DNA of 64,000 bases, taken from IMG/VR virus record IMGVR_UViG_3300037993_000804, one strand, 5' to 3'. Source of the stretch: an uncultured virus (IMG/VR IMGVR_UViG_3300037993_000804) (Duplodnaviria > Heunggongvirae > Uroviricota > Caudoviricetes). The notes beneath the pieces are model-generated. The model had not been told where the DNA came from. It did no database searches and saw nothing but the letters and a program-made list of their open reading frames with translations. Positions 1-47,775 of this stretch are shown piece by piece. The position numbers were made by a program, and so were the translations under genes. Positions within the stretch are counted from its first letter, which is position 1, and every line of letters begins with the position of its first letter.

Positions 1-94
1 AAGGAGCAATTACCCCTCCCGCTGAATATCGAGGGGGACATTACCAAGAATGGCAAAACACTAGTGGAAATATTTGATGAGGAGGCAAAACATC

Positions 95-26582: not shown

Positions 26583-26833
26583 GTTATCACCCGGATTCAA
26601 TGAGTCAGGCCCGCATGCTCATGGCTCTGAATATCCTGGCCGGCAATGGACCGGTGCCCGCCCTCCCGAGGGCGACGACGCTGGACGAAGAGCAGCGCGC
26701 CGTCGTGAAATCGTTCACGGACGTCAGAACGCAGGGCTACGGGGAAATTCGGGTAACCGTGATTGCCAGTCATCTGGACACGGTCTATACGACCCAGGTG
26801 CGCAAGCGGCGAGACTTTGAGAATCAGGGATGA
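26579..26833 (+). CDS. Small protein with DUF2292/YezD-like C-terminus
   Basis: VRTQGYGEIRVTVIASHLDTV pattern; start uncertain. Confidence 0.45.
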   Translation: MSYHPDSMSQARMLMALNILAGNGPVPALPRATTLDEEQRAVVKSFTDVRTQGYGEIRVTVIASHLDTVYTTQVRKRRDFENQG

Positions 26834-26840
26834 CAGGTAC

Positions 26841-26973
26841 TTGACAAGACCAATTTAATGGAGTAGATTTTATATGTCGCCCCCGTGTGGGGCGTGGATT
26901 GAAACAAACAAACGACCAGCCAGCGAGAAAGACGAGGCGGGACACACAGATTGTGTCTCGCCTTTTTCTTTTT
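26841..26973 (+). ncRNA. Promoter + solitary type I-C CRISPR repeat + terminator, cassette 1
   Basis: TTGACA-N17-TAGATT; GTCGCCCCCGTGTGGGGCGTGGATTGAAAC (26876-26905); stem 26935-26963 plus T tract. Confidence 0.8.
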
Positions 26974-27001
26974 GTAATGCTTTTGAAAGGAGGGAGAACA
27001 C

Positions 27002-27355
27002 ATGGCCCGCAATAACAGCATGGGGTTGCCCAATCCGGGAAACTTGAGATCTCCTCTCGAAGGCGTTGACCTTGTCGCAGACGGCATCAACCGACTGGGG
27101 GCTCTTCCGGGCCAGTTCGTCGGTCGTGTGCTGGATGCATCGGGCAATGCTTTCAACCAGGTGACCTCGGATCTTGAGAATCCCCGCCAGCAACCTGAGC
27201 GACCAATCCCGCCCGACGTGCTCCTGAAACCCATCCCCCAAGCAGTTGGACACATGGTTGGCGGCGTCATCGATGTGGTTAAATCCGGCGCCGATGCTAT
27301 CGTCCAGAACGTGGACGGAGCGCGCAGTGAGCTCGAAACTTTCGTCCGGGGATAA
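27002..27355 (+). CDS. Hypothetical amphipathic protein (putative virion component)
   Basis: GGAGG RBS; first gene after cassette 1. Confidence 0.6.
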   Translation: MARNNSMGLPNPGNLRSPLEGVDLVADGINRLGALPGQFVGRVLDASGNAFNQVTSDLENPRQQPERPIPPDVLLKPIPQAVGHMVGGVIDVVKSGADAIVQNVDGARSELETFVRG

Positions 27356-27393
27356 AGGTTTATTCCCAAGAATAATTAGTTAGGAGGCCAGAA

Positions 27394-27789
27394 ATGGCGA
27401 ATGGAGCATCACCTTTAGCAGCCCCGTTTTCCCAGCTGAAACAACTGGGGACGCAGGGCGTACAGAGTGTCAACAGCCTGAACCTGAATCTCGCCCAGGC
27501 GCTTAACCAGGGCCTCGACGTTCTGTCCCAGGGTTTGCCCGCCCTTCCCACGCCCGGCGGTCAGTCCCTTTCCCTCCCACAGTTACCCGGTTTACCCGGC
27601 GGCCAGTCCGCCCCGGGCGCAGGCCCCGCAGGGTTACTGCCGTCCCAGCTGACCCAGGCACTGTCCAATGTCAATCCCCTGAATTTCCTCGGCGCACTCG
27701 GCAAAGCGCCGAACCCCGCTCCGGCCAATCAACCCGCGGCACCCGCAGCGGTCGCACCCACCAAGGTTACCCAGTTCCGGGGAATGTAG
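27394..27789 (+). CDS. Pro/Gly/Gln/Leu-rich protein (putative virion component)
   Basis: AGTTAGGAGGCCA RBS shared with the next two genes. Confidence 0.6.
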   Translation: MANGASPLAAPFSQLKQLGTQGVQSVNSLNLNLAQALNQGLDVLSQGLPALPTPGGQSLSLPQLPGLPGGQSAPGAGPAGLLPSQLTQALSNVNPLNFLGALGKAPNPAPANQPAAPAAVAPTKVTQFRGM

Positions 27790-27817
27790 ATTCCCAAAAA
27801 TATTAAGTTAGGAGGCC

Positions 27818-28675
27818 ATGTTTAACATGCCAAGAGATTGGGGTAACACCATTACCGTGGCGAGCGTTCTCGCCAATACCGCGACTCAGTCCGGAACTCC
27901 GAAGACTTATTATCCGACTGACAACACGCAAACCAAAGAGCAGCTTCAGTCCAGTTATATCGCCACCGAGCAAATCACGATCAACGGCCGGTCTTATACC
28001 CTGAACCAGATCACCCAATGGGATGTCAAAGTCTTCGCGGATGAACTGGATGCGCGTCTCCGCCGGATGAACCCCTTCATCTGGGAAATCTTCGCCAATA
28101 ACGCCCTCAACTGCCTGGTGGCCATGCGGTTGGCGAACAACGAAGACAGTCAGGGATTCGGCGGCGCCGTTGGTAGCGGCAATGCCATCGACGATGCGAT
28201 CTTCGCCGCCCGGACCTTCTATGATCCCGACAACCAGCCCAATAACCGCCGGAATTCATGGGAGCGGACCATTGCCGCCACCGGCCCTAAGGATTTCATT
28301 GTCGGCGCCACCTCCGGTTCTTCGCTCTCGCTGACGAAGTACGAATCCATGATCTTCCTGGCCTGGTACAATCCGACCGATGCCCCGCTGGTCGATATGT
28401 TCCAGATCACTTACAACACCATTGCCTACGACTGGCAGGAAGTTGATTTCGAAGAGAACAACATCCAGCAGGGCGATGTGGTCTGTGAGTGGAAAGAGCC
28501 CTGGATTCTCCCGCCCAACGAATCCGGCTATGTGGCCGTGGATTACTACAAGACGGGTCTCGACATGATGCGTCCCATCGGCCTGTACTTCAAAGAATCC
28601 AAGAATATGCGCCAAATGGCTTCGAGCCCCGCTGGTACACAGCCGACCTCTGGCGTCGCAATGGGCCAGAACTAA
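27818..28675 (+). CDS. Candidate major capsid protein (helical N-terminus, beta-rich C-terminus)
   Basis: Strong RBS, downstream hairpin, 285 aa. The function is an inference from context. Confidence 0.45.
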   Translation: MFNMPRDWGNTITVASVLANTATQSGTPKTYYPTDNTQTKEQLQSSYIATEQITINGRSYTLNQITQWDVKVFADELDARLRRMNPFIWEIFANNALNCLVAMRLANNEDSQGFGGAVGSGNAIDDAIFAARTFYDPDNQPNNRRNSWERTIAATGPKDFIVGATSGSSLSLTKYESMIFLAWYNPTDAPLVDMFQITYNTIAYDWQEVDFEENNIQQGDVVCEWKEPWILPPNESGYVAVDYYKTGLDMMRPIGLYFKESKNMRQMASSPAGTQPTSGVAMGQN

Positions 28676-28797
28676 ACTCGACAATCTGGGCTGGCTAATC
28701 GCAAGGTTAGCCAGCCTCTACCGCAGGCTGTCGGAAGGTTTAAGCCTCCGGGGATGAATCCACGTGAGGAAACAGCCATATAGTTAGGAGGCCAGAG

Positions 28798-29634
28798 ATG
28801 GCACGAAGAGTTATTACCCCGGCGTCAAGAGTCAACGGCGACCTTGACCTTAAAGTTGAACCCCGGTACGGCAACCGGACCTCGCGTCTTTATATCGGCG
28901 GACGGCTGCTCGCCTATCAGGAAATCAACCTGAATCTGGGCTCGTCAGTCCAGAACTACCGGCTCGGCGCACGCGCGCTGGCGGATGAGTCCATCTACCG
29001 CTATTGTTACAATGGCGGCGGGGCCCTGGCTGCGGGCGTTCTGGTCCAGTCACCGGTACCCCCCACCGATTGGAAGGGCCTGGCGCTGGTCACCAACACC
29101 GTCGCCGGCGCGACGTCCTTCACCATTACCCTGGGCGCCACCACGGCTGTCACCCTGAACCAGCTGGCGGGCGGTTACCTCTGCTGCGACGCGGGAGCAG
29201 GCGGCGTCGGCGTCCGTCTGCGCATCGCCGGCAACACGGCGGCCACCGCGACCAATCCCACCACGATTACCACGGTGGATGCGGCCCCGGTCGCTTTCAC
29301 CGCCGGCACCCATACCTTCCAGTTCACGATGAGCCCCTACATGAACGTCATCGTGACACCCGGGACAACTCCCCCGACGGCCAAGGTCCTGGGGGCAACG
29401 ATCTGCGCGGTCAGCATCAATTACTACTTCTGGCTGTGCACCCGTGGCCCGGTCGTGCTCACCAATACCACCGGCACCCCGACTTCCGGCCAGACGGCGG
29501 TGGCCAGTCTTACCGGCGTGGGGACTTTCGATGAAGCCCCGGCCGAATGGATTGCGACCACCATGCCGATCGGCACAGTGAGAAGAACGGCCAGCGGCTC
29601 CGGTGTCACCACGATTGACCTGATGCTGGAGTAA
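28798..29634 (+). CDS. Beta-rich Gly/Thr/Ala structural protein (decoration/spike-like)
   Basis: YRYCYNGGGALAAG...YYFWLCTRGP resembles viral cement/decoration proteins. Confidence 0.55.
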   Translation: MARRVITPASRVNGDLDLKVEPRYGNRTSRLYIGGRLLAYQEINLNLGSSVQNYRLGARALADESIYRYCYNGGGALAAGVLVQSPVPPTDWKGLALVTNTVAGATSFTITLGATTAVTLNQLAGGYLCCDAGAGGVGVRLRIAGNTAATATNPTTITTVDAAPVAFTAGTHTFQFTMSPYMNVIVTPGTTPPTAKVLGATICAVSINYYFWLCTRGPVVLTNTTGTPTSGQTAVASLTGVGTFDEAPAEWIATTMPIGTVRRTASGSGVTTIDLMLE

Positions 29635-29717
29635 TTGGTCACCAATTTAGCTACCACAACGACGGCGCCGGGGCGGGAAGCCGTCCCGGTGCCGTGCAAT
29701 AATTTAGGAGGCGAGTA

Positions 29718-30347
29718 ATGCTAGAACTGAAGCAAAAGCCCCAGTTCAATATCCAATTACCGCCCCGGATGCTGGAAGAGGGTTATCTGGTCTACTTCCC
29801 GACCACCTGGCCGTCGACCTATAATAATGTCCGAGGTCAGATGTTTCAGGTATCGGTAGCCAAGCAGATACCTTATGACATTCCGTATATCATCCCGGGT
29901 GGCGATTACCGCGACGTGGATTTCAGCAACGGCGGCGGTACCTTCCAGGAAAACCTCTACCCCGAGAACGATGTTACCCTGGAACAAATCGGCGTCAGTT
30001 TCAAAGAAGGCGATTTCCTGGCCGAGTTCTTCATCCCGGCCAATACCACCTACGACTATCTGGAATACGCCGGCATGACCCCGACGCTCACCGACCCGAA
30101 GCTGATTTATCTTGGCGCCTACCGCTGGCAGGATAGCCCGTACAAAGACCCGCAGTTCTTCTTCTACGCGATCCACAAGTTGACCCCGTTGATCATGCGT
30201 CTCTATGCCGAGAAGAATGTCGATTTCGCCCACATCATGACCGGCCTGATCGTCAACAAGATGCTGCTCTCCCCGATCCCGAACCCGACCCAGGCGCAGC
30301 AGACCCAGGCCAAGGTCATCCATTATTATGACGAGTTGAAATGGTAA
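29718..30347 (+). CDS. Putative structural protein
   Basis: RBS; aromatic, beta-rich; in operon. Confidence 0.6.
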   Translation: MLELKQKPQFNIQLPPRMLEEGYLVYFPTTWPSTYNNVRGQMFQVSVAKQIPYDIPYIIPGGDYRDVDFSNGGGTFQENLYPENDVTLEQIGVSFKEGDFLAEFFIPANTTYDYLEYAGMTPTLTDPKLIYLGAYRWQDSPYKDPQFFFYAIHKLTPLIMRLYAEKNVDFAHIMTGLIVNKMLLSPIPNPTQAQQTQAKVIHYYDELKW

Positions 30348-30359
30348 GGAGGATTTAAC

Positions 30360-30728
30360 ATGCCATCCGAAGTAGTTACCGCCACCAATACTCCGGCCGT
30401 TGGCTCCGGATCGCCTCCCGGTGCGTTAGTCGCCGCCCAGATCACCGTCAAGAACCATGAGCTGAAAAGCATCATCATCGACAACAAGCAGGGGGCGTCT
30501 GACCATCAGGTGATCATTTACGATTCTTTCACGCCTTCGATCACGAACGGCGTTGCCTCTCCCGTTTTCACCACCGAAGAACGCTTCGTCATGGACGTGA
30601 TCATGGGAGACGTGGAAAGCTTTAACGAAGAGGACCTGAGGGGCATCCGGTGTATCGGCGCGCTCAGCGTACTGGCGGATTCCGTCGATACGAAGTGCGT
30701 CATCACGGTCGGCTACGAAAGCAAATAG
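30360..30728 (+). CDS. Small all-beta putative structural protein
   Basis: Alternating hydrophobic strands. Confidence 0.6.
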   Translation: MPSEVVTATNTPAVGSGSPPGALVAAQITVKNHELKSIIIDNKQGASDHQVIIYDSFTPSITNGVASPVFTTEERFVMDVIMGDVESFNEEDLRGIRCIGALSVLADSVDTKCVITVGYESK

Positions 30729-30743
30729 CGGGAGGGCTCAGCC

Positions 30744-31337
30744 ATGGCCACAGCGCAGACAAATCTGGTGTCAGCCCTCACCGGACCGAATCAGCAGTTT
30801 GGACCTGGACAAGAACAAGCAGGCCCCGGTCAACTGCAAACTGTAACATCGGCTCCGATGCCGCTGATACCTGTCGGTTTACCCGAAACCCGGTCGCCAT
30901 ACCTGGACCTGGGATCACTGCCGGTTGCCAACTTGCCGTCGGTCGCCGTTCCGGCTGTCGTCTTGAACCAATACAGCGGAAATGACCAGACCTGGCAGGT
31001 GCTGATCGAGTGGGATATTCCCGAGACCGTGTACGGCAACCTCAAAGAAATTTCCCTGCTCTCCAACAATGACGCGAAAACCCGATATCGCATGTTCCTG
31101 GCCAACATCAACCAGAACCTGCCGACCGACAGGCCGACATCAACGCCGGTGAGCTGGCCGTTCCCGGATAACCAAATCCCCGGCGGCACCTCGGTCCGGA
31201 TCGATTGCCTGTCCGTCGATGGCACCGCCATCGTCGTCAACGGCACACTTTCCGGCATACTGGGCGTCCTGCCGAACAGTCCCTCGGCCACACTGGTCGG
31301 ATCGCAACCGCCGCCGCTGATACCGGCCGCGAGTTAG
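30744..31337 (+). CDS. Putative structural protein with beta-sandwich C-terminus
   Basis: RBS; IPGGTSVRIDC..DG..IVVNGTLSG. Confidence 0.6.
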   Translation: MATAQTNLVSALTGPNQQFGPGQEQAGPGQLQTVTSAPMPLIPVGLPETRSPYLDLGSLPVANLPSVAVPAVVLNQYSGNDQTWQVLIEWDIPETVYGNLKEISLLSNNDAKTRYRMFLANINQNLPTDRPTSTPVSWPFPDNQIPGGTSVRIDCLSVDGTAIVVNGTLSGILGVLPNSPSATLVGSQPPPLIPAAS

Positions 31338-31348
31338 GAGCTACTAAA

Positions 31349-32833
31349 ATGGCAAATATACCCGGCATTACGATTTCAATACTCAGGTCGCAGACCTTCG
31401 GACAAACCGGCCAGCCCCTGCAAATCAGCGGCCGGGTTACTGCCTTTAGCGTTCCGTTGCCCTTGTCTTTTGTGCGCGTTTCTCTGACCGGGCCGGATTA
31501 CGACCCGCAAACAACAGCCTTCGACACGCTCGCCGACCCTGAAGGCAACTATGCCGTGGGAGTCGTGGCGCCGGCCGACGGGAACTATACCGTCAAGGCC
31601 GATGCTTATCCCTTCCCGCTGTTGCCCCAGGGTCCGCTCATCGCGCAACCCATACTGCTGCCCTCGATCGGCGAATCCGATTCGCCGCCCCTGGTCTTCG
31701 GCGCACCCGGGCCGGGAGGCGTAATTGCCAGCGGGCCCAATGGCGCCGCCAACCTCGGCGCCCCGGCGCTCACCCAACCGGAGCTCAACCTGAATCTTGC
31801 GATCGGCAATCAGGGAGGAGGAAGCGGCGGCACGGTTGTCTTCCCGGGTTACCCCGCCCAGGGCGGTGGTCTCGGAGGCGGAGGCGCAACACCCCCCAGT
31901 TTACCGAATCCCGGTAGTCCCATCGGAACAACACCCGTGAGTACACCGACGACGATTGCACCCCCGGTAACTGTATCTGTACCGACGAGTCCTACCATCC
32001 CCACACCGCCAACGCAGGTATCGAAACCCACGGTGACTCCCGCGATACCCCTGGCGACCCCCGGGTCGGCAACGCCGGCACCCGTACAAGTGGGCGCAGC
32101 GGTTATCCCGATAGGAACCGCCGTGATCACCCCGCAAGGTACCCTGGGCGTTGTCAGCGCCGCCCCGAATAATCCAACGGGCAGCATCTATAACTTTGTG
32201 GAAGGTCCCGGTTACGGGATTAAATTAAACGGACCACCGACTACCACCACTGTCCCAACGTCGCCCGCCGGTGCGTCCAATGTCATTACGTCCCAGGCCG
32301 CGTCAAATGCGGCAGCGACCGCAACGCAACAGGCGGCCGAAGCGGCAGCCGCGCTTTCATTACAGCAATCCGAGGCGGCCCTGCAGCAATCCATCGCCGC
32401 GACCAGTTCACCAGTAGTGGTCCCGACTTCGCCGACCGCGCCGACTTCGCCGTCCTCCATCACCAGCGCGCTTTCTTCCCAGTTCGGCAGCGCCCCGGCC
32501 GTGCCGGCTGCGCCAACCTCACCGATCCCCGCCCCGCCGCGGCCATCTTCTCCCGCATCGACCAGTCCCGTGGCCCCGAAATTACCGGCGGCCCCGACTG
32601 TAACTAAGCCTGGCGTCAATACCAAGTCCATACTCAGCGATGTTGTCACCGCCATTTCCCCGGCCATCGGCGCCACCCTGACCGCGACGGGTGTATTGCC
32701 GAAAGCCGGTTCATCCGTCATCACCAAGCCGTCAGTGACCCCGGCCCAAACCCCGGTCCTGCCGAAAGTTACCGTACCAACCCCAGGAACCATCAGTACC
32801 CCGGCATCCGGCATTGTCATGTATAATGTTTAG
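31349..32833 (+). CDS. Ig-like N-domain plus long Pro/Thr/Ser/Ala low-complexity protein
   Basis: ATG 31349 after AGGAG; ISGRV...DPEGNY...GNYTVKA. Confidence 0.7.
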   Translation: MANIPGITISILRSQTFGQTGQPLQISGRVTAFSVPLPLSFVRVSLTGPDYDPQTTAFDTLADPEGNYAVGVVAPADGNYTVKADAYPFPLLPQGPLIAQPILLPSIGESDSPPLVFGAPGPGGVIASGPNGAANLGAPALTQPELNLNLAIGNQGGGSGGTVVFPGYPAQGGGLGGGGATPPSLPNPGSPIGTTPVSTPTTIAPPVTVSVPTSPTIPTPPTQVSKPTVTPAIPLATPGSATPAPVQVGAAVIPIGTAVITPQGTLGVVSAAPNNPTGSIYNFVEGPGYGIKLNGPPTTTTVPTSPAGASNVITSQAASNAAATATQQAAEAAAALSLQQSEAALQQSIAATSSPVVVPTSPTAPTSPSSITSALSSQFGSAPAVPAAPTSPIPAPPRPSSPASTSPVAPKLPAAPTVTKPGVNTKSILSDVVTAISPAIGATLTATGVLPKAGSSVITKPSVTPAQTPVLPKVTVPTPGTISTPASGIVMYNV

Positions 32834-32890
32834 TAAGAGGCTCAGAAGAGCAGGACGCTCACCCGGCGCCCACCTGTCAGGAGTTTAATT

Positions 32891-33313
32891 ATGGATTGGA
32901 ACGGCATCTTTCAAGGCATCGAGGCGGTGGGGGTTGTCGGGGGCGCAATAACGGTCTGGCTGGCACTGAAGAAACAGGGCGACGATTCGCGGGAGTCGCG
33001 GGAGAAAGAGCGCAAAGCCCGTGAAGCCGAGATCGCGCAGCACGTCGAGACCTGGACCAACCTGACCCGCGACATGAAAGACATTAACATCCGTATTGAC
33101 GGAGTCAACACCCGTTTCGACGCCACCAACAAAGAGATCGAGGAAATTAAGCGTATCCTGGGCAACGGCTATTTTGGCGGGCTCAAAGAAGAGATCGCCA
33201 ACATGGAGAAACAATGCGCCCGGGAAATGGGCGAGCTCGCCAAGCAGGTGGAGATGGACACGCCCCGCATCAAAGACCTGGAAGAATGGCGCCACGGCTT
33301 CGACAAGAAATAA
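32891..33313 (+). CDS. N-terminally anchored coiled-coil membrane protein
   Basis: One TM segment followed by heptads. Confidence 0.6.
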   Translation: MDWNGIFQGIEAVGVVGGAITVWLALKKQGDDSRESREKERKAREAEIAQHVETWTNLTRDMKDINIRIDGVNTRFDATNKEIEEIKRILGNGYFGGLKEEIANMEKQCAREMGELAKQVEMDTPRIKDLEEWRHGFDKK

Positions 33314-33374
33314 TCCCGGCCACCCGCCTGCCAAACAGGCGGTAAAATTCCCCAAAATATTTGCGTAAAACCAC

Positions 33375-33404
33375 TTGACAACCCCCAATGGGAAAGCTTA
33401 TAGT
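33375..33404 (+). promoter_or_regulatory. Sigma70 promoter of the replication block
   Basis: TTGACA-N18-TATAGT. Confidence 0.65.
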
Positions 33405-33448
33405 TTATTTTGCCGTTAAATTTTTATTTATTCGAAGGAGTGTAGTGC

Positions 33449-33868
33449 ATGCGTAATTTAATCACCCTCTCAGACATCCCTACCGAACTGCACCAATGGT
33501 ACAAAGACGAAGCCCACCGGCGCACACTAGCAAAGAAAACCCATGTTCCACTCTATACCGTCATCAACGAGGCCCTGAACCGGTACATGGCCGAAGTTGA
33601 ACAGGCCCGGCAGTTGCAACCCCCGCCGCAAATGCCAAATGGCAGTACAGACGGCAGCCCGCCCGCCCGAAAGACCCGGAACCACGATTTTGACTACTTC
33701 ATCAACACCGGCGGCGGCCCGTACCCCGATGTCAGGACCGCCCTGCAAAATCTCGACATTCCCGAAGTAGAAAAGCCCAAGCATAACCGTTACGAACGGC
33801 TGTCCGCAATACTCAAGGTCCGGATTCAGCGGCGTCCGAAGACCGAGGCGGTGACCGATGGCGGATAG
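33449..33868 (+). CDS. RHH-like regulator with C-terminal HNRYERLS domain
   Basis: ITLSDIPTELHQWYKDEA...LYTVINEALNRY. Confidence 0.65.
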   Translation: MRNLITLSDIPTELHQWYKDEAHRRTLAKKTHVPLYTVINEALNRYMAEVEQARQLQPPPQMPNGSTDGSPPARKTRNHDFDYFINTGGGPYPDVRTALQNLDIPEVEKPKHNRYERLSAILKVRIQRRPKTEAVTDGG

Positions 33869-34718
33869 AATGGGATCGATGGATGAGATCAGCTCGCTAC
33901 TACTGCAAAACATCAAAGAGGTCGAGCAGAAAGACGAGAAACAGGTCCTGGCCGAACTGGCCGGCGAAAGTCTGACGGAATACATTTACGAAACCACCGT
34001 GGATGAGTGGGTTACCGACGAGAAAGGCCATCGTCACAAGGAAAAAAGACGCAAGGTCAAACTGTCATGGGTCGGGACCCGCGAGGTCGCCCGCAGCCAC
34101 GGCAAAATCATGTTATCGGAACCCGTGATTACCGATGTCGGGGATAATATCCGCTTTGTCGTCAAGGCCACGGATGTAGACCGTGCCTTCACGGTCTTCG
34201 GTGGGACCCAGCAGCCCAAGCAGATCAAGGTCATAGATTGGGACAAAGAGACCAACAAGCCTACCGGAGAATTCCATTATGAAGAAGACCCCTATGTTTT
34301 CTCAAAGGGTTTATCGAAGGCCCAGCGTAACGCCCTGTCGGCCTGCATCCCCACGGCCTTCGCCGCCCGGATGATTGATCTCTTCTTGAAGCAATCCGGC
34401 AAGCAACCGATGCTGAATCCTGCCGCCAGCAAGGCCCTGGTACCCGGCGAAAAACCTAACGCCGCCGGTCAGAAAAGAGAGGGCGAGAAGAAACCTGTAA
34501 TCAAGGCCCGTGCCGAATGGGACAAAATTACCGAAGCTGACATCAAAGATACCCCGGCGTTATACAAAATCGTCTGGGATCTGGCCAAACTGCAACCGGA
34601 CCAAATTTCGAGAGCACTGGGAGGACTTTCGACCCAAGACCTTGCCACCCCTGAAAAGTGCTGGACAGCTTTCATCACGGTGAAAGAACTGTACGCGCCT
34701 GTCGAAATCTCAAAATAA
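33858..34718 (+). CDS. Putative ssDNA-annealing/recombination protein
   Basis: LSWVGTREVAR...VKATD...KGLSKAQRNAL; replication context. Confidence 0.45.
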   Translation: MADRMGSMDEISSLLLQNIKEVEQKDEKQVLAELAGESLTEYIYETTVDEWVTDEKGHRHKEKRRKVKLSWVGTREVARSHGKIMLSEPVITDVGDNIRFVVKATDVDRAFTVFGGTQQPKQIKVIDWDKETNKPTGEFHYEEDPYVFSKGLSKAQRNALSACIPTAFAARMIDLFLKQSGKQPMLNPAASKALVPGEKPNAAGQKREGEKKPVIKARAEWDKITEADIKDTPALYKIVWDLAKLQPDQISRALGGLSTQDLATPEKCWTAFITVKELYAPVEISK

Positions 34719-34733
34719 CTTTTAAGGGGTGTT

Positions 34734-35225: not shown

Positions 35226-35250
35226 GCCTAGTTAATGTCATAAAAGGAAC

Positions 35251-35935
35251 GTAACGGAATATCCGTTACAGATTAATACATGCCCAAATCGAAACCTTGG
35301 CTCAAGATGTGGGTCGAATCACTGGATGATCCGAAGATGCGCCGGCTTACCCTGGCTGAAGAGGCTGTTTGGTGGCGCCTGCTGCGGTTAGCCCAGAGAT
35401 GCAACTGCGATGGGAGTCTTATCACCAGCAGCGGCTCACCACTTGCCCTGCATGAGATGATGGATTGTCTGCATTTGGTAGAGCCCGACGATAAAGCAGC
35501 TTTCTACTCTATGCTCAAGAAGATGGAGACTGAAGGTAGTCTTTGCTGGAACAAAGAGACCCTGCACATCATCCACTTCGTAGAACGGCAAGAATTAATC
35601 CCCTCCGAAACCCCGGAGGCCGTCAGAGAACGGGTCAGACTTTTCAGAGAACGGCACCGGCATCAACCCGAAAGTAACGAAAAATCCGTTACATCAAATG
35701 GTCTTTCCCCCTTACAACCCTCTATTCCTTCTTTATTAGAAGAAGATACTAGATATAGAGAAACGCCGTTACGTAACGGCGTTACATCCGTTACATCAGA
35801 CGTGAGCGTAACGGAAATTTCGTTACAAAGTGCCGATTTAGCTTCAAAACCTCAAAATGGGGATAAGGTCAATTTAGAGGGAAAAGTCGAGGCTAAAATG
35901 GAACAAGTTGAGAATGTAACAGGTAAACCGTTACA
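35251..35935. repeat. Iteron-like palindromes GTAAC-N9-GTTACA (probable origin)
   Basis: Copies at 35251, 35674, 35808 and 35916; palindrome 35765-35780; tandem CGTTACATC at 35780-35797. Confidence 0.8.
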
Positions 35936-36269
35936 GCCTCAAACTCCCGGCACGAAATATTTATTTGAGAAAACTAATCGTAAACGGTGGCAGAATCTTG
36001 TCCAGAAGGAAATGTTCGAGGCCACGGAGGCAGAAGTCGGCGAATCCCGCATGATCGAAGCCATAAACTGGGCATTGGGCTCGGGCATAAATAACGTCAA
36101 GAGTATCTGCACGGCAGCGAAAAAAGGAAGTAACCATGGCACAAAACCATCAGCCAATAACCCCGGGCAATCCAATACGACCAATCGGCGAGGTACTTTC
36201 AAAGGTCATACCGACGCAGAGTATGAAGAAGCCCGGCGTAAACTTAACGGAGAATCAAGTGATTCCTGA
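35280..36269 (+). CDS. Phage-type replication initiator
   Basis: PWLKMW...DDPKMRRL; ERVRLFRER; upstream of a DnaC-like gene; internal iterons. Confidence 0.8.
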   Translation: MPKSKPWLKMWVESLDDPKMRRLTLAEEAVWWRLLRLAQRCNCDGSLITSSGSPLALHEMMDCLHLVEPDDKAAFYSMLKKMETEGSLCWNKETLHIIHFVERQELIPSETPEAVRERVRLFRERHRHQPESNEKSVTSNGLSPLQPSIPSLLEEDTRYRETPLRNGVTSVTSDVSVTEISLQSADLASKPQNGDKVNLEGKVEAKMEQVENVTGKPLQPQTPGTKYLFEKTNRKRWQNLVQKEMFEATEAEVGESRMIEAINWALGSGINNVKSICTAAKKGSNHGTKPSANNPGQSNTTNRRGTFKGHTDAEYEEARRKLNGESSDS

Positions 36270-36963
36270 CCGGCCCCAGTACAAGTGTTCTATCTGCCGC
36301 GATTTCGGGTTCGTCCATCCGTTAAAAGAAGACGGCCAGCCGGATTATACGCAGATTGTCGATTGCGATTGCGTCAAGGCGGTGAGGGCCAAGATGCGTC
36401 TGGACTCAATGGTCCGCTGGTGTGAACTTCCCGAAGCCACGGTGCATATGACCTTTGAAAATTATAAAGTATCTCCCAAGGTGAAAGAGGTTTATACGGC
36501 CGCGCTGGAAATGGCCGAAGGCAAACCGGAAAAACCGTTCCTGACAATGATGGGTAAATCGGATTTAGGCAAGACCCACCTTTTGGTGGCTATCTGCCGG
36601 CGCCGGCTCGCCCAGGGTAAACCGGCCCGTTACGTTTATGTCCCGATCCTGCTTGAAGAGCTGCGCTCCGGGTTTCGCGGTGGCGGCGACGGGACTTATG
36701 AAGAACGGTGGTTGATGTTTAAAACGGTCGAGTTACTGGCGCTTGACGACCTCGGTACGGAAAATCCCACGCCGTGGGTGCAGGAGCATCTTGACACGCT
36801 GATTGATTACCGGGTGATGCATGCCCTCCCGACAGTGATCACGACTAACCTCTTGCCGGATGAACTGACTCCCCGGATCGCCAACCGGCTGCAACGAGCC
36901 GGGCAGGTTGTCATTGTCAGCGCCCCGCCCTATAGCGCGGTGAAGGGAAAAGCTGTAAAATAA
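36136..36963 (+). CDS. DnaC/IstB-like helicase loader ATPase
   Basis: CxxC..CxC Zn site, TFENY, GKSDLGKTHL, LALDDLGTE, ITTNL. Confidence 0.92.
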   Translation: MAQNHQPITPGNPIRPIGEVLSKVIPTQSMKKPGVNLTENQVIPDRPQYKCSICRDFGFVHPLKEDGQPDYTQIVDCDCVKAVRAKMRLDSMVRWCELPEATVHMTFENYKVSPKVKEVYTAALEMAEGKPEKPFLTMMGKSDLGKTHLLVAICRRRLAQGKPARYVYVPILLEELRSGFRGGGDGTYEERWLMFKTVELLALDDLGTENPTPWVQEHLDTLIDYRVMHALPTVITTNLLPDELTPRIANRLQRAGQVVIVSAPPYSAVKGKAVK

Positions 36964-37149
36964 TACAAATGAAAGAAGGCGACCGATTATGGATTACGAA
37001 CGGCGAAGTTGCCTGGGAAATACCCCCGGGACCAATCGCCCACCGTTATGCTTCCCAGCTCTACCAGCCGGTAGAACCCTGGGTAATCATCTATGCCGAA
37101 AAATTGCCCGGGTGGAAAGAGGGCCGATGCGGCGAACTGAGGAGGCATT

Positions 37150-39603
37150 ATGACGATCTCCCTGCAACTAAAGCCGGCAGACCTTAAACTGCCGGAAAAG
37201 TTCACCGAATTCCGCGAACACCAGCTCATCGCGCTCGACAAGATTCTCCAGACGCGCAAGAAAGTCATCATGTGCCAGGCGCCGCCCGGCAGCGGAAAAA
37301 CTTTGCTGATGGCGGCCATGGGCCGGCTTCTCAACACGCGGATGGTTTATACTTGTCACAATAAGCAGCTGCAGGGCCAGGTGATCCACGAATTCCCCTA
37401 TGCCGTCGAGCTCAAGGGCCGGTCGAACTATACCTGCCTGAAGCACTCGGACCTGACCTGCAACGAGTGTACCAAAGAACGGAATAATCACCGGCCGTCC
37501 AACTGCGCCAAGTGCGAGTTTACGGCGTGCGACTCCCGCAATCCCGGCAATCTGGCCGACACTTTCTTCGTCGACGAGTGCCCCTGCAAAACGTATTGTC
37601 CGTATGAGATTCAGAAGAACCATGCCAAGCTGTCGGAGATGGCCGTGCTCAACATGGCCTATTTTCTCAACGAGGCCAACGGCGTTTACGACCCCGGGGC
37701 TTTCTCCGGCTGGCCGATGGTGATTCTGGACGAAGGCGACCTGACCGAGAACGCTCTCAAGTCTTACATCGAAGTGGCCATCCCGAAGGCCACCCTGAAG
37801 AAATTGCAGCTGGAGCCGCCGAAGTACGCGGTCGAAGACGAATGGAAGAAATGGATCGAGGAATTGGCCATCCCGGTGCTGCAGAAGACCATCGACAAGA
37901 TCGCGGCCGCGGATGAAATCGTCCCGTTCGACATTAAAGAGCAGAAAAACCTCGAGCGTTTAGCCGGCAAAATGAATGACCTCTGCTATCAGAATCTCCA
38001 TAACTGGGTATTTCTCCCGGATGAAGAAAACCTGACGTGGAAACCGGTGTTTGTCGACCATTATGCGCTCGAAAACCTGTGGAGTCACGCCGACCGGTTC
38101 CTGTTGATGAGCGGCACGATAATTTCTCCCAAGCAGACCGCCCGCGACATCGGCCTGGACATGAACGATGTGGATTACATCGAGGTGCCGAGCACTTTCC
38201 CGCCCGAACGCCGGCCGATCCACTTTATCCGGGCGGCCGATATGACCCATGCGAACAAAGCCAAAGCGTGGCCGGACGCCGTTTCGATGATGGATTTCAT
38301 CATCAAAGAACACCCGACCGACAAGGGCCTGGTGCATACCGTGTCTTATCCGCTGGCCAGGTATGTGGCCGAGAATTCTACCAATAAAGTCCGGCTGGTG
38401 CAGCATGACCCCCGGCACCGGGTTACAGAGCTCGAGCGTTTCAAGGCCAGCGACCAGCCGCTGGTGATGGTGTCGCCGTCCATGGACCGGGGTGTGGACC
38501 TGCCCGGCGATTTATGCCGGTTCATTATCGTGCTGAAGATACCCTATCCCAACCTGGGAGACCCGCAAGTGAAGCGCCGGACCGAATTCGGCGACGGCTG
38601 GCTGTGGTATTCCGTGCAGACGATCCGCAGTCTGATTCAAGCTACTGGCCGCGGCAACCGGTCGGCGGAAGACTACTGTGAATGTGTCCCTCCCGAAATG
38701 AGGGTATTGACGGCTGACCTGCGCTGGGAACCTATAGGTAACCTTAAACTGGGAGATCGTTTACTCGCCTTTGATGATAAACGTCCCTTGACAGCCGGTT
38801 CTTCAAGATTAGGGTGGCACAAACCAGCGTGGCGAAGGTGGCAGTGGTCGGATGTTCTAGCAATACGCAAGGAGAAAAGACCCTGTCTGAGGTTAATTCT
38901 TGAAGATGGTACGGAGTTGCTTTGTACCTATGATCATCGTTGGCTTGTAAGGCTAGGTAACAGAAGTACCGAATGGCGAAGATCAGACACCCTGCGACGT
39001 TTCCATGGAGAATTAGCATATCATCCCCTGATTCGGTTATTGGACCCTTGGGAATCAACGCAAGACTATGCTACTGGTTGGTTGGCTGGATTAACTGATG
39101 GGGAAGGGTCATTAAGTTTGAGTAGTGGGAAGAGAAACCGTTGGGTTCCCAAATTAAATATCGCGCAGAATGAGGGGCCCGTTACGGTTCAACTCGGTGA
39201 ATTCGCAACACACTTGAGATTTACTCTTTATCAGCACAAGGGTAATCGGAAGACGAAGGTTTATGACGTTAGGGGTGGATTCACAGAAGTATTAAGGTTC
39301 TTGGGTCAAGTTAGACCCGTCCGCTTATTAAATAAATTTTGTGACTCTAATGCAGGGCAAGTACTCCAAACGTATCAGGATGTATCAATTAGGGCTATTG
39401 AAGACGCTGGAACCAAAGAGGTTGTGATGATGGAAACGAGTACGGGAACTTATGTCTGTGAGGGATTTGGAGCCCATAACTGTTATATTCTCGATGAGCA
39501 ATTTGGCCGGCTCTTTCGTGACTACAACGCTTACTTTCCCCAATACTGGAAAGACGCAATAAAACCGTACAAGAGGAAAGGACAAGGAGAAATGAAGCTG
39601 TGA
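37150..39603 (+). CDS. DinG/XPD-family SF2 helicase containing an intein
   Basis: Q motif, APPGSGKT, KGRSNY.C, LDEG, MSGT, RGVDLP, QATGRGNRS. Confidence 0.92.
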   Translation: MTISLQLKPADLKLPEKFTEFREHQLIALDKILQTRKKVIMCQAPPGSGKTLLMAAMGRLLNTRMVYTCHNKQLQGQVIHEFPYAVELKGRSNYTCLKHSDLTCNECTKERNNHRPSNCAKCEFTACDSRNPGNLADTFFVDECPCKTYCPYEIQKNHAKLSEMAVLNMAYFLNEANGVYDPGAFSGWPMVILDEGDLTENALKSYIEVAIPKATLKKLQLEPPKYAVEDEWKKWIEELAIPVLQKTIDKIAAADEIVPFDIKEQKNLERLAGKMNDLCYQNLHNWVFLPDEENLTWKPVFVDHYALENLWSHADRFLLMSGTIISPKQTARDIGLDMNDVDYIEVPSTFPPERRPIHFIRAADMTHANKAKAWPDAVSMMDFIIKEHPTDKGLVHTVSYPLARYVAENSTNKVRLVQHDPRHRVTELERFKASDQPLVMVSPSMDRGVDLPGDLCRFIIVLKIPYPNLGDPQVKRRTEFGDGWLWYSVQTIRSLIQATGRGNRSAEDYCECVPPEMRVLTADLRWEPIGNLKLGDRLLAFDDKRPLTAGSSRLGWHKPAWRRWQWSDVLAIRKEKRPCLRLILEDGTELLCTYDHRWLVRLGNRSTEWRRSDTLRRFHGELAYHPLIRLLDPWESTQDYATGWLAGLTDGEGSLSLSSGKRNRWVPKLNIAQNEGPVTVQLGEFATHLRFTLYQHKGNRKTKVYDVRGGFTEVLRFLGQVRPVRLLNKFCDSNAGQVLQTYQDVSIRAIEDAGTKEVVMMETSTGTYVCEGFGAHNCYILDEQFGRLFRDYNAYFPQYWKDAIKPYKRKGQGEMKL
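38683..39480 (+). mobile_element. Intein (266 aa) with LAGLIDADG endonuclease
   Basis: Starts CVPPEMRVLTAD, contains WLAGLTDGEG, ends GAHN followed by Cys; AT-richer than host gene. Confidence 0.93.
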
Positions 39604-40610
39604 AGATCGCCGTCGTCAATTCCAGTTTCCGGGGTATGAAGCCTGCCGACCGGATCTACAACCTGGCGTGCGACCGCATTGCGACCCTGCACCGGGCGAT
39701 GGGCGATGAGGTCATCGAGGGCGAATGGCAGCCGGCTTTCATGCAGGAGTGCGTCAAGTTCTATTTCAGCGTGATTTTCACCTGGGATATCCCCGCGATG
39801 ATTCAGGCGGTGCAACAAGTTCAAAGCTGGGGAGGCCGGAAAATCGAAATCGGCGGCCCGGCAGCCACTTTCATGCACCGGTACATCGAAGAGAAGACCG
39901 GGGTTAAGCCGCATATTGGCCTCGACAACCGGTTTGAACGTGTCCGGGGCAATTTCAAGATGACCTTCACCTCGCGGGGATGCGTTCACGACTGCGCCTT
40001 CTGCGGCGTGAAAAAGGTCGAGCCCAAAGCCATCGAGTATGAAGACTACGGGCTCAGTCCGATGATTTCCGATAACAACATTCTTTCGACTTCGCCCCTG
40101 CACCAGCTGAGGTTCATCAACAAGTACGCGGCCTGGGGGAAAAAGGTTGACATCAATTCCGGGTTCGATGTGAGATTCTTCCAGGAGCGCGATTACGACA
40201 TGTACTCCCAGCTCAACATTTTTTGCTGGCGGTTTGCCTTTGACAGCATGGACGTGTGGCAAGATGTCTGGCGGGTGGGAACGCTGATGCGGAGCAAGGG
40301 CCTCGACCGGCATCATTGTCAATTCTACTGTTTGATCGGATTTCCCGGTCAATCGCCCGAAGACGCCCGCTTCCGGCTGGACGCCATCCGTTTGCTTGGC
40401 CACCAGCCGTACCCGATGCGCTTTATCCCGATTAACAGCCTGACGCATAAGTATGTCGCCCCGGGTTGGACCGAAGAAGAGCTATTCAGATTTCAGACGT
40501 ATTACCAAACACCGAATCTGTGGATGGCCACCAAGTTTGAAGATTTCCGTCCGGGCAAGAATATCGTTAAAATACCGGACAATCAAATACCGCTGGAGGC
40601 GGGAGAATGA
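39600..40610 (+). CDS. Radical SAM protein
   Basis: SRGCVHDCAFC, IGGP, DNNIL, FAFD. Confidence 0.9.
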   Translation: MKIAVVNSSFRGMKPADRIYNLACDRIATLHRAMGDEVIEGEWQPAFMQECVKFYFSVIFTWDIPAMIQAVQQVQSWGGRKIEIGGPAATFMHRYIEEKTGVKPHIGLDNRFERVRGNFKMTFTSRGCVHDCAFCGVKKVEPKAIEYEDYGLSPMISDNNILSTSPLHQLRFINKYAAWGKKVDINSGFDVRFFQERDYDMYSQLNIFCWRFAFDSMDVWQDVWRVGTLMRSKGLDRHHCQFYCLIGFPGQSPEDARFRLDAIRLLGHQPYPMRFIPINSLTHKYVAPGWTEEELFRFQTYYQTPNLWMATKFEDFRPGKNIVKIPDNQIPLEAGE

Positions 40611-41278
40611 AGAGAAAAGCGACCCCTCGGCCCACTCAGGTTACCCGCAAATGCCGCTACTGTAAGGGCGAAGGCCGGATACTGCACCGGGCGCTTTCGG
40701 AGCCGGGCTACTATCAAGAGGGCTGGCGGGAAAATTGCCCGGACTGCCACGGTACCGGAATCGTTACGGTCTGGGGGATGGAGAGCCGATGACGCGCAAG
40801 CGAGCAAGGGAAGTCATGGGCATTACCGCCGTGGTCTTTCTGGGACTTATCGGTATCTGCGTGATGTTTGGAGAGTGGAATTGGGCTTTAGGGCTGCTCG
40901 GCCCGTTTCTGGCTGCGGCCGTGGGCGTATTCGCTTTTGGAAGGGTGAAATCCGAATGAAAAAACGAAAGTTAAAGTGCCCGGAATGTAAGGGTAAGGGT
41001 GTCATTGACCAGAGTGTAATGATTGGCCCCATGAATTACCAGCACGAATTAAAACGCTGTGAGCGATGCGATGGTAAAGGGAGGATCGTATGAGAAGTGA
41101 AGATGAAATCAAAACAGAACTGGACAGGTTAAAGAATATTCCTGCGCCATTGCCCCCAAGCGGGGGTTTGTATGGCGAATCATATTTAGAAGCTCTGCAT
41201 GCTATCACCCGGGTAGAACAGGGAGCCCGCATATCCATGTTGAAATGGATACTAGGCGAAACAAGGATGGCTTGTTGA

Positions 41279-42019
41279 ATGATTACCAGAAGAGCACGGA
41301 CCGGCCCGGTCATTCGCACGTTTTGGCAGGACTTTGTGGCGCTTTCCCATCTTTCGATGTATCTGCCGATCCTCTGTTTCATGGTCTGCGGCACGTTTCT
41401 GGCGCCGCGGGTGGACTATATTACTTTCCTGTATATGATTATCGGAGTAAGCGCCGGCGTGATCCTGGGGGCGTACCGGCTGAATGCCATCCGGGACGGC
41501 GGTTCGACGCTGCCGGTGCTCACTAATTTCCTGATCGCCCTGGTCGGACTGGCCATCTTCTGCACCTGCCTGGCGATTGTGACGGCGCGGGATAACTGGC
41601 TGGTACTGGTCTTCGGCGGCCTGGGGATTTTTGCGATGGTGATTTACAATCTGGTCCGGAACCGGATCATCCACAACAGTCTGGTTTACGGTCTCTGCTG
41701 GGGATTTATGCCGGTGGTCCTGGCCAACTGTTTGCAGACGTTGACCTGGCCGAAATGGGATATCGTCGCCCTCGGCTTGCTGGCGGCCGTCTTCGCCCGG
41801 GCCTATACCTGGAATCACGGGCTCCGGATCTGCGGGGTTTACGCCATCTGCCGGCGACATAAAGACGCGGTACCCTGCCACTCGAATTCGGTGACCTGCC
41901 GGGAGCGGCTGGTGATGCCGAAATCCATTTCCGACCATGCCAAACTGCGGCTTTCAATGGACCGCCTGATGGTGTTATTATTAACAGCGTTCATCGTTTT
42001 ACTTTACTTTAGGAGGTAA
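41279..42019 (+). CDS. UbiA-superfamily-like membrane prenyltransferase
   Basis: About 7-8 TM helices; AYRLNAIRD (NxxxD), VIYN, YGLCWGFMPV; divergent. Confidence 0.55.
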   Translation: MITRRARTGPVIRTFWQDFVALSHLSMYLPILCFMVCGTFLAPRVDYITFLYMIIGVSAGVILGAYRLNAIRDGGSTLPVLTNFLIALVGLAIFCTCLAIVTARDNWLVLVFGGLGIFAMVIYNLVRNRIIHNSLVYGLCWGFMPVVLANCLQTLTWPKWDIVALGLLAAVFARAYTWNHGLRICGVYAICRRHKDAVPCHSNSVTCRERLVMPKSISDHAKLRLSMDRLMVLLLTAFIVLLYFRR

Positions 42020-42022
42020 TGC

Positions 42023-42406
42023 ATGGGGAAAAAAGCCGATGAATACAAGAACAAGGTGCTGGTGGAGAATTACAAGCAGCTCAACCGCAAGCTGGTAACC
42101 CTCAGCGGGATCGGCGTCCGGCAGCTGCTCGGCACGCGGCCCGAGGCCGATTCGCGCACGGAGTATGTCACCAAGCTGGCCCTGAAGATCGACGCGACCG
42201 CCGCGATGACCGAGGTGGTTCTCGAACTGATGCTGTCCAAGCTGGAGATTTCCCGCGATGATTTTCTGCAGCTGATGACGGAGAAGCTGGAACAAGCGGT
42301 CAAAGACCTGGAAGAAGACTTCTGCATTACGTCGTGGAATGATGACGGTCAGCCGATCTTCGACCTGGAGAAATACGCGCAAAGGAGTCAAATGTGGCCC
42401 AGATAA
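42023..42406 (+). CDS. Hypothetical protein
   Basis: AGGAGG RBS; in operon. Confidence 0.65.
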   Translation: MGKKADEYKNKVLVENYKQLNRKLVTLSGIGVRQLLGTRPEADSRTEYVTKLALKIDATAAMTEVVLELMLSKLEISRDDFLQLMTEKLEQAVKDLEEDFCITSWNDDGQPIFDLEKYAQRSQMWPR

Positions 42407-43038
42407 CCGACAACAAGCAACTAATCCTGCATGCCTGCCAGGTCAACCTCGAATACATGAGGCTGCCGGCGGGCCACCTCAAGAAATACCTGAATATCGC
42501 CAACCTGTATGACCGGCTGGCCGAGCAAAGTATGCGCTGTGCTGCAGCCTGGATCGCTAACCAGGAATGTCCCGACCACGAACCCGCCGTGGACGCATTC
42601 TGGTGGGCGGCGGTCACCTGGGCGGATTCTTTCGGCCGGGCGGTCGGCGCGGACCGCTACGAATGGGAAACAATCGTGGTGACTCCCCACGTGGAGTTTG
42701 CCAATTACCTCAAACCGGACGGTTACCGCTGTGAACCGAACTACTGCGAAGGGACGCCCTGCAATATCATCATGGCGCTGGACGTGGCGTGGATGAAAAC
42801 GGTGATGAGTCTTACCGGACAGTGGGGATGGTTCCATCACCTGAAAGACATGCCCGCGCTGGCCGAGGCCCAGAGACTGGGGGGCGAACTGAGCAGCGAC
42901 ACCGAGGCGAAGCGGGCTTATCTCAAGAGCGACCTGGTTTTCTTTCACCAGCTTTTTACCCCTTTCCCGTTGACCACGGTAACCCGTAATCCGCTGGATT
43001 ACTTTGTCAGAAAAGCAGAGGAGGAATTAAATGGCTGA
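42394..43038 (+). CDS. Hypothetical Trp-rich helical protein
   Basis: AAGGAG RBS; in operon. Confidence 0.65.
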   Translation: MAQITDNKQLILHACQVNLEYMRLPAGHLKKYLNIANLYDRLAEQSMRCAAAWIANQECPDHEPAVDAFWWAAVTWADSFGRAVGADRYEWETIVVTPHVEFANYLKPDGYRCEPNYCEGTPCNIIMALDVAWMKTVMSLTGQWGWFHHLKDMPALAEAQRLGGELSSDTEAKRAYLKSDLVFFHQLFTPFPLTTVTRNPLDYFVRKAEEELNG

Positions 43039-43519
43039 AAACGAACCCACCCCAACCCCGGAAACCCCGCCCGACGAGTCACCGCAACAGGAACCGGCTG
43101 CCCAGGAAATGCCCGGCAATACCGAAGCAGTACCGTCATTCGGTCCGCCCAGGGGCGAGAAAGCGCCGACCTACGACGAGAATACACCCAACGGACTTGT
43201 TTCCCCGCGCGATTACGACCATTGCCCGGTCTGCGGCTGCAAGGGCCGGTTTACCGTGGAGAGCATGCGCGGCGACTTCTCGAACAAGCAGCTGGAGGAA
43301 AGACCGCCTTGCCTGGCGCAGTTCCAATCGACTTATTTTACCCCGGCCGGACAGATAACCTTGATCTGCATGGTCGACAGTTGCGTCCGCTGCGGCACGG
43401 TTTACACCGTGCATCGGGAGAAACGGTTGCTGGCGAAGAAGCCGGATATCGTCATTCCCGGCAAGACGTTGCAGCGGCCCGGTACTTTCCCGCCCGGACG
43501 GCAGCGGAACTTCAATTAG
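43031..43519 (+). CDS. Zn-binding hypothetical protein
   Basis: CPVCG and CVRCG. Confidence 0.6.
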   Translation: MAENEPTPTPETPPDESPQQEPAAQEMPGNTEAVPSFGPPRGEKAPTYDENTPNGLVSPRDYDHCPVCGCKGRFTVESMRGDFSNKQLEERPPCLAQFQSTYFTPAGQITLICMVDSCVRCGTVYTVHREKRLLAKKPDIVIPGKTLQRPGTFPPGRQRNFN

Positions 43520-43806
43520 CCGGGTGCTATAATTAACTGTGATGGCCACCTCGTAGAGAAATCGCCAGGATTATAGCCTGGTATTGCAGCGTGTATCTAC
43601 GAGCAACGAGAGGGGGTGCAAACCCCTCTTTGTTTTAGGTGGGACACATGGAGACGGGGGAAATTGAAGTCAATCTCGAATGGCACAAAGGCGGATTCTG
43701 TATCTACGAATTCTGTATCTACGAATCGACCTGGTGCAGCGAGGGCCTCTGCAGCGGCTGTGAAATTTACCGGCGCTGGAAAAGGTTGGAACGTATGCTC
43801 CGATAC

Positions 43807-43954
43807 TTGACAAGACCTATTTAATGGAGTAGATTTTATATGTCGCCCCACGCGCGGGGGCGTGGATTGAAACATGTGTTAGCATTACATCGAATTTGAC
43901 CGGCCGGCGCGTAACACGAGGCGGGGTACAGATCGTACCTCGCCTTTTTCTTTT
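43807..43954 (+). ncRNA. Promoter + solitary type I-C CRISPR repeat + terminator, cassette 2
   Basis: TTGACA-N17-TAGATT; GTCGCCCCACGCGCGGGGGCGTGGATTGAAAC (43842-43873); stem 43919-43945 plus T tract. Confidence 0.82.
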
Positions 43955-43989
43955 GCACTAACGTTCTTCTCTTCTGACAGGAGGCTATT

Positions 43990-44831: not shown

Positions 44832-44842
44832 AGGCGGGCAGT

Positions 44843-45784: not shown

Positions 45785-45793
45785 GAGGAAAAC

Positions 45794-46501: not shown

Positions 46502-46509
46502 GAGGAAAT

Positions 46510-47766: not shown

Positions 47767-47775
47767 GACAGGTAC

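Follow-up and report, generated by a model that had tools for sequence, protein, structure and literature searches.

Two solitary type I-C CRISPR repeats, each set between a predicted promoter and a terminator, as candidate RNA anti-CRISPRs in a large phage-like element

CRISPR mini-arrays that are borne by viruses act in virus–virus conflicts. Viral solitary repeat units are single repeat mimics that often lie directly behind a promoter and tie up Cas proteins, and one such RNA anti-CRISPR (Racr), RacrIC1, inhibits type I-C interference and restores plaquing of a targeted phage (PMC10651486; Camara-Wilpert et al., Nature 2023). Viral RNAs that resemble CRISPR RNAs (crRNAs) have in turn been described as guiding Cas proteins to the promoters of cas or toxin genes, and type I-C candidates of this class (Cracr) are reported (10.1101/2024.10.29.618823). 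Here we analysed a 64,000 nt stretch of DNA from an uncultured virus (IMG/VR record IMGVR_UViG_3300037993_000804), referred to in its entirety as the window, in which a first-pass annotation made from the sequence alone had noted two cassettes of promoter, type I-C repeat and terminator, each placed ahead of an operon. We consider the chances somewhat better than even that the two cassettes are solitary type I-C repeat units of the Racr kind, specifying decoy RNAs directed against a host type I-C system.

Reading and aligning both places confirmed that the window contains two homologous cassettes, located on the plus strand at 26838–26973 and 43804–43954, and that the observation is real and far beyond chance. 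Each starts with a 38 nt promoter (26838–26875 and 43804–43841) of the sequence TACTTGACAAGACC(A/T)ATTTAATGGAGTAGATTTTATAT, which is near-identical between the copies, as had been claimed (37/38 positions, with a single A/T difference), and which occurs exactly twice in the window and in none of 100 shuffles. A consensus scan returned TTGACA, a 17 nt spacer and TAGATT, ending 6 nt 5′ of the repeat in both copies (−35 at 26841–26846 and 43807–43812; −10 at 26864–26869 and 43830–43835); the promoters are predicted to be sigma-70-like, with the +1 predicted to fall on the first G of the repeat. Promoter 1 overlaps the 3′ end of the upstream open reading frame (ORF), and promoter 2 overlaps that of a 61 aa Cys-rich ORF (43639–43824), which terminates inside it. 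The repeats themselves are intergenic, lying between ORFs, and there is a single type I-C repeat per cassette, at 26876–26905 (30 nt) and 43842–43873 (32 nt). Both retain the GC stem (5 bp in repeat 1) and the entire 3′ half GCGTGGATTGAAAC, and the 3′ end GTGGATTGAAAC is present in the window only at 26894–26905 and 43862–43873. For both, the best Rfam match was CRISPR-DR9, at 21.7 and 22.1 bits, which is under the gathering score of 45. No second repeat or anti-repeat was found, as the 70–82 nt 3′ of the repeats showed no resemblance to the repeat or to its complement (p 0.28–0.81 against shuffles).

Downstream of the repeats, alignment of the cassettes verified a variable segment of 8 nt in the first (AAACAAAC, 26906–26913) and 24 nt in the second (43874–43897). 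This is followed by a conserved 28 nt tract, GACCRGCCRGCGNGNAANACGAGGCGGG (26914–26941 and 43898–43925), that is found at the two cassettes only within the window and is absent from shuffles; in cassette 1 its 3′ end is the 5′ arm of the terminator. Intrinsic terminator 1 (26934–26973) has a 13 bp stem with a 5 nt loop at 26934–26964 and a T-tract, whilst terminator 2 (43918–43954) has a 12 bp stem with a 5 nt loop at 43918–43946, again with a T-tract. They have a lower stem in common, GAGGCGGG/CTCGCC(TT), and differ in the upper stem (ACACA/TGTGT versus GTAC/GTAC) with pairing kept, in agreement with the compensatory changes noted earlier. Both are the top-ranked terminator-like sites in 26–45 kb, and in the folds the repeat hairpin and the terminator form independent hairpins. 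The promoter is thus nearly invariant between the copies, whereas the transcribed part differs.

The host lineage is probably Dehalococcoidia, and a lack of relationship between the repeat and host arrays had been named beforehand as a result that would count against the proposal; we searched 401 genomes sampled from the class of G001, which is labelled Dehalococcoidales (one of the 401, G249, is unpublished), and matches were found. The sequence GGGCGTGGATTGAAAC was present at no more than 1 mismatch in 48/401 genomes, 23 of which had at least three matches, mostly at ∼66 nt spacing. Repeats of the fetched arrays read GTCGCCCC..GGGGGCGTGGATTGAAAC. Repeat 2 has 1 mismatch in 32 (31/32 identical) to the arrays of two genomes (G033 and G123) and 2–5 mismatches to those of nine others, always in the loop or upper stem, such that the phage repeats differ from arrays only where the arrays vary among themselves, i.e. 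in the loop and the top of the stem. In four of five genomes tested, a cas5d gene (TIGR01876, above cut-off) was situated ∼5 kb before the array. Furthermore, in two of the four RNA runs described below, contigs carry the 43842–43873 stretch twice, 33–34 letters apart (once in run X16, twice in run X17), and these are array units with the same repeat in the same samples. Cassette parts gave only chance matches of 11–16 nt to host CRISPR-cas loci. The nine host leaders compared are unlike the phage promoter, with 6/9 ending ...ATACG before the first repeat, as opposed to ...TTTTATAT in the phage, and the unit is therefore not a captured leader–repeat junction; a leader–repeat unit for spacer acquisition was rejected, as no host-like leader abuts the repeat. 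Two loci in the sampled class (L115 in G057 and L118 in G362) have a full I-C repeat followed after 34 nt by a degenerate repeat, and are one-spacer mini-arrays distant from any long array. A literature search combining Dehalococcoidia, type I-C and prophages returned nothing relevant.

Additional insight comes from natural variants. One related locus (L002) is identical to the window over cassette 2, whilst a separate record (L001) keeps the promoter, with one extra T before the repeat, and a repeat identical to repeat 2, but has a single base in place of 43874–43970, i.e. the 97 nt comprising the variable stretch, tract, terminator and tail. As such, the repeat is the conserved core and the downstream module is optional. 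In L001 the repeat lies directly before a ribosome-binding site and 20 nt from the start codon, a layout which implies that transcription from promoter 2 serves the operon. The Cys-rich ORF has an in-frame 15 nt tandem duplication (∼43695–43724) in the window that is absent from both L001 and L002.

Using the cassettes as BLAST queries against related loci, we identified a third promoter at 47773, the 20 nt −35 region of which (47767–47786, GACAGGTACTTGACAAGACC) is identical to that of the cassette promoters. Its spacer and −10 region differ, yet it is followed, at the same distance as in the cassettes, by a repeat-like stretch of 26 nt, so that the whole unit occupies 47767–47835 on the plus strand. 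The stretch ends in GGAATGAAAC at 47826–47835, which matches the repeat end at 9/10 positions, although the hairpin is gone. As all three promoters precede a repeat or its remnant, they appear to constitute a promoter family whose transcripts would all start with one or the other. A contig from RNA run X15 tracks the window to the end of TACTTGACAAGACC (26851) and continues with 127 unlike letters, which points to a related genome in that sample carrying one more promoter of this family.

Beyond these close variants, promoter, repeat and terminator were absent in 41/41 relatives of ORF 43990–44562, the first gene behind cassette 2, for which upstream sequence was viewed; the gene in these relatives was mostly seen, on visual inspection, to adjoin the reading frame before it. 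Nor was any I-C-like solitary repeat found in 94 relative loci (516 kb), where two weak matches ending in TTGAAAG were dismissed. More distant relatives do without any cassette, which is a recent, lineage-specific accessory.

In order to assess transcription we used four RNA runs, all of which cover 27.0–30.2 kb and 44.1–46.5 kb; for the first operon, RNA-library contigs extend over 27038–30230. Three bins (35838–36504, 38506–39172 and 42508–43174) had zero cover in every run, which makes it unlikely that the RNA cover results from DNA carry-over. At the contig level, the proposal that the cassettes are operon leaders was supported, as two of the four runs have contigs that start inside or just behind repeat 1 and cross terminator 1 into the first ORF (X17, 26894–27500; X16, 26902–27415), and another X16 contig (26500–26913) covers promoter and repeat 1. 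Genes cannot be ranked by contig depth, nor can RNA ends be read from the ends of contigs, and two further observations are therefore hints only: contig depth in X15 is 44–51 for the two operons and 2–6 between them, and one X17 contig begins at 26894, a single base ahead of where Cas5d would be expected to cut.

In type I-C systems, Cas5d cuts at the 3′ base of the repeat hairpin and an 11 nt handle stays on the downstream product. In our favoured interpretation, the large phage-like element would have in each cassette a gene for a small RNA, in which a strong host-type promoter starts transcription at or beside the first base of a single repeat that copies the host I-C repeat. Most transcripts would end at the intrinsic terminator, giving RNAs of ∼98 and 113 nt, with some reading into the operon. 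Host Cas5d would bind and cut the repeat hairpin, and the 3′ product would consist of the handle, a further 28 or 44 nt and the terminator hairpin; the 11 nt handle could then nucleate Cas5d, Cas7 and Cas8c on an RNA that guides nothing. Cas proteins would thereby be diverted from genuine crRNAs, as with a Racr-type RNA anti-CRISPR. Favouring this interpretation are the solitary nature of the repeat, a predicted promoter less than 250 bp upstream, the location on an element devoid of cas genes, the match to type I-C arrays of the likely host class and of the same samples, the integrity of both repeats, the retention of promoter and repeat between the copies and in L001, the RNA cover of the region and the commonness of such solitary repeats in viral contigs. 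The decoy function put forward in the first-pass annotation thus fits the anatomy and the I-C array match and has a precedent in RacrIC1; as a claim it remains consistent with the evidence rather than proven.

A number of points weigh against a decoy function. The 28 nt conserved tract is explained neither by a pure decoy model nor by any other reading, and repeat 1, at 30 nt, is 2 nt short of the canonical I-C repeat. Racr genes commonly adjoin anti-CRISPR (acr) genes, unlike here, where none was recognized near the cassettes in general scans, a dedicated search with an acr library not having been made. Comparison of 196 spacer entries from the fetched arrays (a count in which arrays fetched twice are entered twice, and to which three spacers seen in RNA contigs do not belong) with the window yielded no match beyond 17 nt, and targeting of the element by type I-C is therefore not demonstrated. 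The host can be given only as a likely class, taken from relatives of a downstream gene in Dehalococcoidia metagenome-assembled genomes. Because relatives lack the cassette, conservation across them is unusable as support, and the RNA data, being assembled contigs from the four runs, offer no read-level starts, ends or cleavage sites.

Of the competing explanations, the one that survives best, although we consider it unlikely, is that the RNA acts as a crRNA-like guide (Cracr or crlRNA), whereby handle, pseudo-spacer and terminator hairpin load Cascade and repress a partial match flanked by a protospacer-adjacent motif (PAM), be it in the host cas promoter, in the promoter of a toxin that guards CRISPR or in a rival element. 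Viral CracrVA1 is described with the same arrangement, a single repeat leading into a spacer-like stretch and then a rho-independent terminator (10.1101/2024.10.29.618823). In the alignment the two cassettes diverge most directly 3′ of the handle, exactly at the seed position, and the degenerate repeat of the third copy retains a handle-like end, as pseudo-repeats do. Nevertheless, neither the window nor 10 type I-C cas loci yielded a TTC-flanked seed match, and 935 kb of loci contained no site with at least 9/10 seed positions (shuffled mean 0.5–0.7). BLAST of the 81 nt following the repeat against the 401 genomes gave chance-level hits only (best E-value 0.006 per genome). Moreover, the pseudo-spacer is wholly absent from L001, and the distance from handle to hairpin is 28 nt in one cassette and 44 nt in the other, most of it being the same tract in both. 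That we grant this explanation the weight we do reflects the fact that the searched genomes did not include the true host.

A slightly less probable alternative is that the repeat acts in cis as a Cas-responsive leader, with cutting by Cas5d or loading of Cascade altering terminator read-through, mRNA stability or translation. Several features of the locus are in keeping with this, namely the X17 and X16 contigs that run from repeat 1 through the terminator into the ORF, the 20 nt distance between repeat and start codon in L001, and the occurrence of all three same-family promoters ahead of a repeat or remnant. Additional support derives from viral repeats in general. The 17-mer GGGGCGTGGATTGAAAC has 111 exact places in IMG/VR, with at least four contigs carrying it at two or more places, and 80 fetched loci (L153–L232) contained 132 matches to it, 67 of them solitary. 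Fifty-seven solitary units had 300 nt on both sides, and 50 of these were left after an imperfect de-duplication; a Shine–Dalgarno sequence and an ORF start were present within 100 nt downstream on the same strand for 21/50, compared with 10/50 for the opposite-orientation control. The window is therefore not peculiar in having a repeat within a phage gene's 5′ leader. What is less common is the added terminator module, as only 12 of ∼60 IMG/VR solitary repeats have a terminator-like hairpin within 170 nt. In several of the IMG/VR solitary repeats the downstream stretch starts with AAAC, as in cassette 1. The genes behind these repeats are diverse (of 19 tested, three were structural-like, one replication-related and the rest unassigned), and no shared partner gene was found among the 19.

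The same data also speak against such a leader, in that the IMG/VR enrichment is modest and the de-duplication behind it imperfect, and the RNA contigs do not establish a single molecule across the region. The more specific suggestion that the cassettes are attenuators coupled to Cas was not supported: no mutually exclusive terminator and anti-terminator structures were found in the folds of either cassette, there was no alternative pairing between repeat, tract and terminator arms, complementarity was not significant, and the terminator module is dispensable in L001. We regard it as improbable that the repeat at the 5′ end of the main transcripts is a Cas-sensing leader, on which Cas5d cutting and Cascade loading at the nascent or mature 5′ end would set operon output via read-through, stability or accessibility of the ribosome-binding site, and through which the element would read out host I-C activity; if true, the same logic would extend to many viral solitary I-C repeats located just before gene starts.

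We likewise doubt that the cassettes are relics, in which a repeat from a host array or phage mini-array was duplicated along with an ordinary promoter and terminator and persists by chance. The degenerate third copy indicates that decay occurs, the class contains one-spacer mini-arrays whose end repeats are degenerate (L115 and L118), and relatives manage without the cassette. In disagreement with this, every position that does not vary among the natural arrays compared is intact in both repeats, the promoter–repeat junction is retained in two copies and in L001, no second repeat has left a trace, and what precedes the repeat is a promoter and differs from host leaders. Lastly, a virus-borne mini-CRISPR array was rejected, as this needs at least two repeats around a spacer and only one is present here, with no remnant of another.

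Turning to the element that carries the candidate decoys, none of the 86 ORFs scanned is a type I-C cas gene, in accordance with the first-pass annotation. Recognized genes include those for a tyrosine integrase, a DnaC-like loader, a DinG/XPD-like helicase, a PolX-like fragment and an MCM-like ATPase, as well as S8 and C1 proteases, an E2/JAB/ThiF set, DXS, IspH and a polyprenyl synthetase; family searches recognized no capsid, portal or terminase gene in the window. It is a large, phage-like and cas-less mobile element, present in whole or in part in 20 listed runs from peat and wetland samples, six of which are RNA libraries, and the protein encoded at 43990–44562 has been recorded on contigs as long as 84 kb. 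No nucleotide relatives were found in the phage collection, neither the promoter nor the conserved tract had an exact match in IMG/VR, and two downstream proteins had no close protein relatives there. In a protein atlas, the nearest clusters of two unexplained proteins were mostly viral, which we treat as a lead only. The load of auxiliary genes is unusual for a phage-like element: 74–3039, 5641–6564, 18262–20169, 23458–24471 and 41279–42019 contain genes for E2/JAB/ThiF ubiquitin-like conjugation and for isoprenoid synthesis, the latter set comprising IspH, DXP synthase, a polyprenyl synthetase and a weak UbiA-like match. The 817 aa DinG/XPD-like helicase (37150–39603) matches the PADLOC profile for type IV-A-associated DinG (E-value 3.9 × 10−63), and no other type IV components were found beside it.

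The operons behind the cassettes had been described as structural, a label that is only partly upheld. Operon 1 (27002–33313, plus strand) has nine ORFs of 117–542 aa, for which no PHROG or Pfam family scored above cut-off. Operon 2 (43990–47766, plus strand) has ORFs of 190, 89, 313, 235 and 418 aa, a module conserved in Dehalococcoidia-associated elements. A model of the 313 aa protein, built with 40 sequences, had a mean pLDDT (a per-residue confidence score) of 72 and a confident C-terminal β-sandwich at residues 163–312, for which the best Foldseek matches were a phage portal–tail complex chain (E-value 5.8 × 10−7), contractile injection system baseplate proteins and CBM32 modules. Because of this tail-, baseplate- or CBM32-like fold, a structural role for operon 2 is plausible, possibly resembling a tail fibre or host recognition; most of the downstream proteins have no family matches, leaving one tail- or baseplate-like protein in operon 2 as the part of the label that stands.

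The 190 aa first gene of operon 2 has many relatives with a conserved C-terminal domain, encoded on 244 metagenome stretches, of which the best 80 were kept. Among 15 genome loci with relatives, 14 are labelled Dehalococcoidia, Dehalococcoidales, Dehalococcoidaceae or Dehalogenimonas and one Pirellulales. In seven related loci (L010, L011, L016, L019, L030, L047 and L081) a paralogue with the same ...YMLE(V/A)M end directly precedes the homologue of ORF 43990–44562, so that tandem duplicates exist in this family. A relative is also encoded in one IMG/VR provirus record; there, the module of 190, 89, 313 and 235 aa genes recurs beside an S8 protease and a holin, and stands outside the recognizable siphovirus head-and-tail module of the record. 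In the 76.5 kb IMG/VR sequence G005 (L143–L146), which is classed as one provirus, a siphovirus module with terminase, portal, protease, major head protein, tape measure and serine integrase is situated at 3–46 kb, whilst the region at 47–76 kb has the 190/313/235 aa module, the S8 protease and the MCM-like ATPase in common with the window, and may be a separate element of the same kind.

If the cassettes are active as decoys, the range known for the Racr strategy would widen to RNA anti-CRISPRs acting against type I-C in probable Dehalococcoidia of peat and wetland, a lineage in which phage–host biology is almost unexplored. The decoy strategy is already known from other phages, and it is the habitat and host lineage that are new. 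The natural series of two full copies, a decayed copy and a terminator-less variant could be used to separate the roles of repeat, tract and terminator, whilst the frequent presence of solitary I-C repeats in the 5′ leaders of phage genes provides a small lead on whether they act only in trans.

When set against known systems, the cassettes have in common with mini-CRISPR arrays the presence of host-type repeats on a virus without cas genes. They are similar to Cracr units in combining a single repeat with a spacer-like stretch and a rho-independent terminator, and in the occurrence of several units per element (10.1101/2024.10.29.618823). For the window cassettes, however, the loci and genomes searched yielded no PAM-flanked seed match in the promoter of a cas or toxin gene, the defining trait of such units, and the repeat of the window is full and canonical, whereas that of Cracr is a degenerate pseudo-repeat. 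Relative to Racr units, the element has two full copies and one degenerate copy under one promoter family, and its copies head operons and possess a strong terminator of their own as well as the conserved 28 nt tract; additionally, no acr gene was recognized nearby, the host is probably a member of the Dehalococcoidia, and activity is at present only predicted. What the cassettes share with Racr units, and with RacrIC1 in particular, is a single virus-borne repeat mimic of the subtype of the likely host, with a promoter directly upstream and neither cas genes nor a second repeat.

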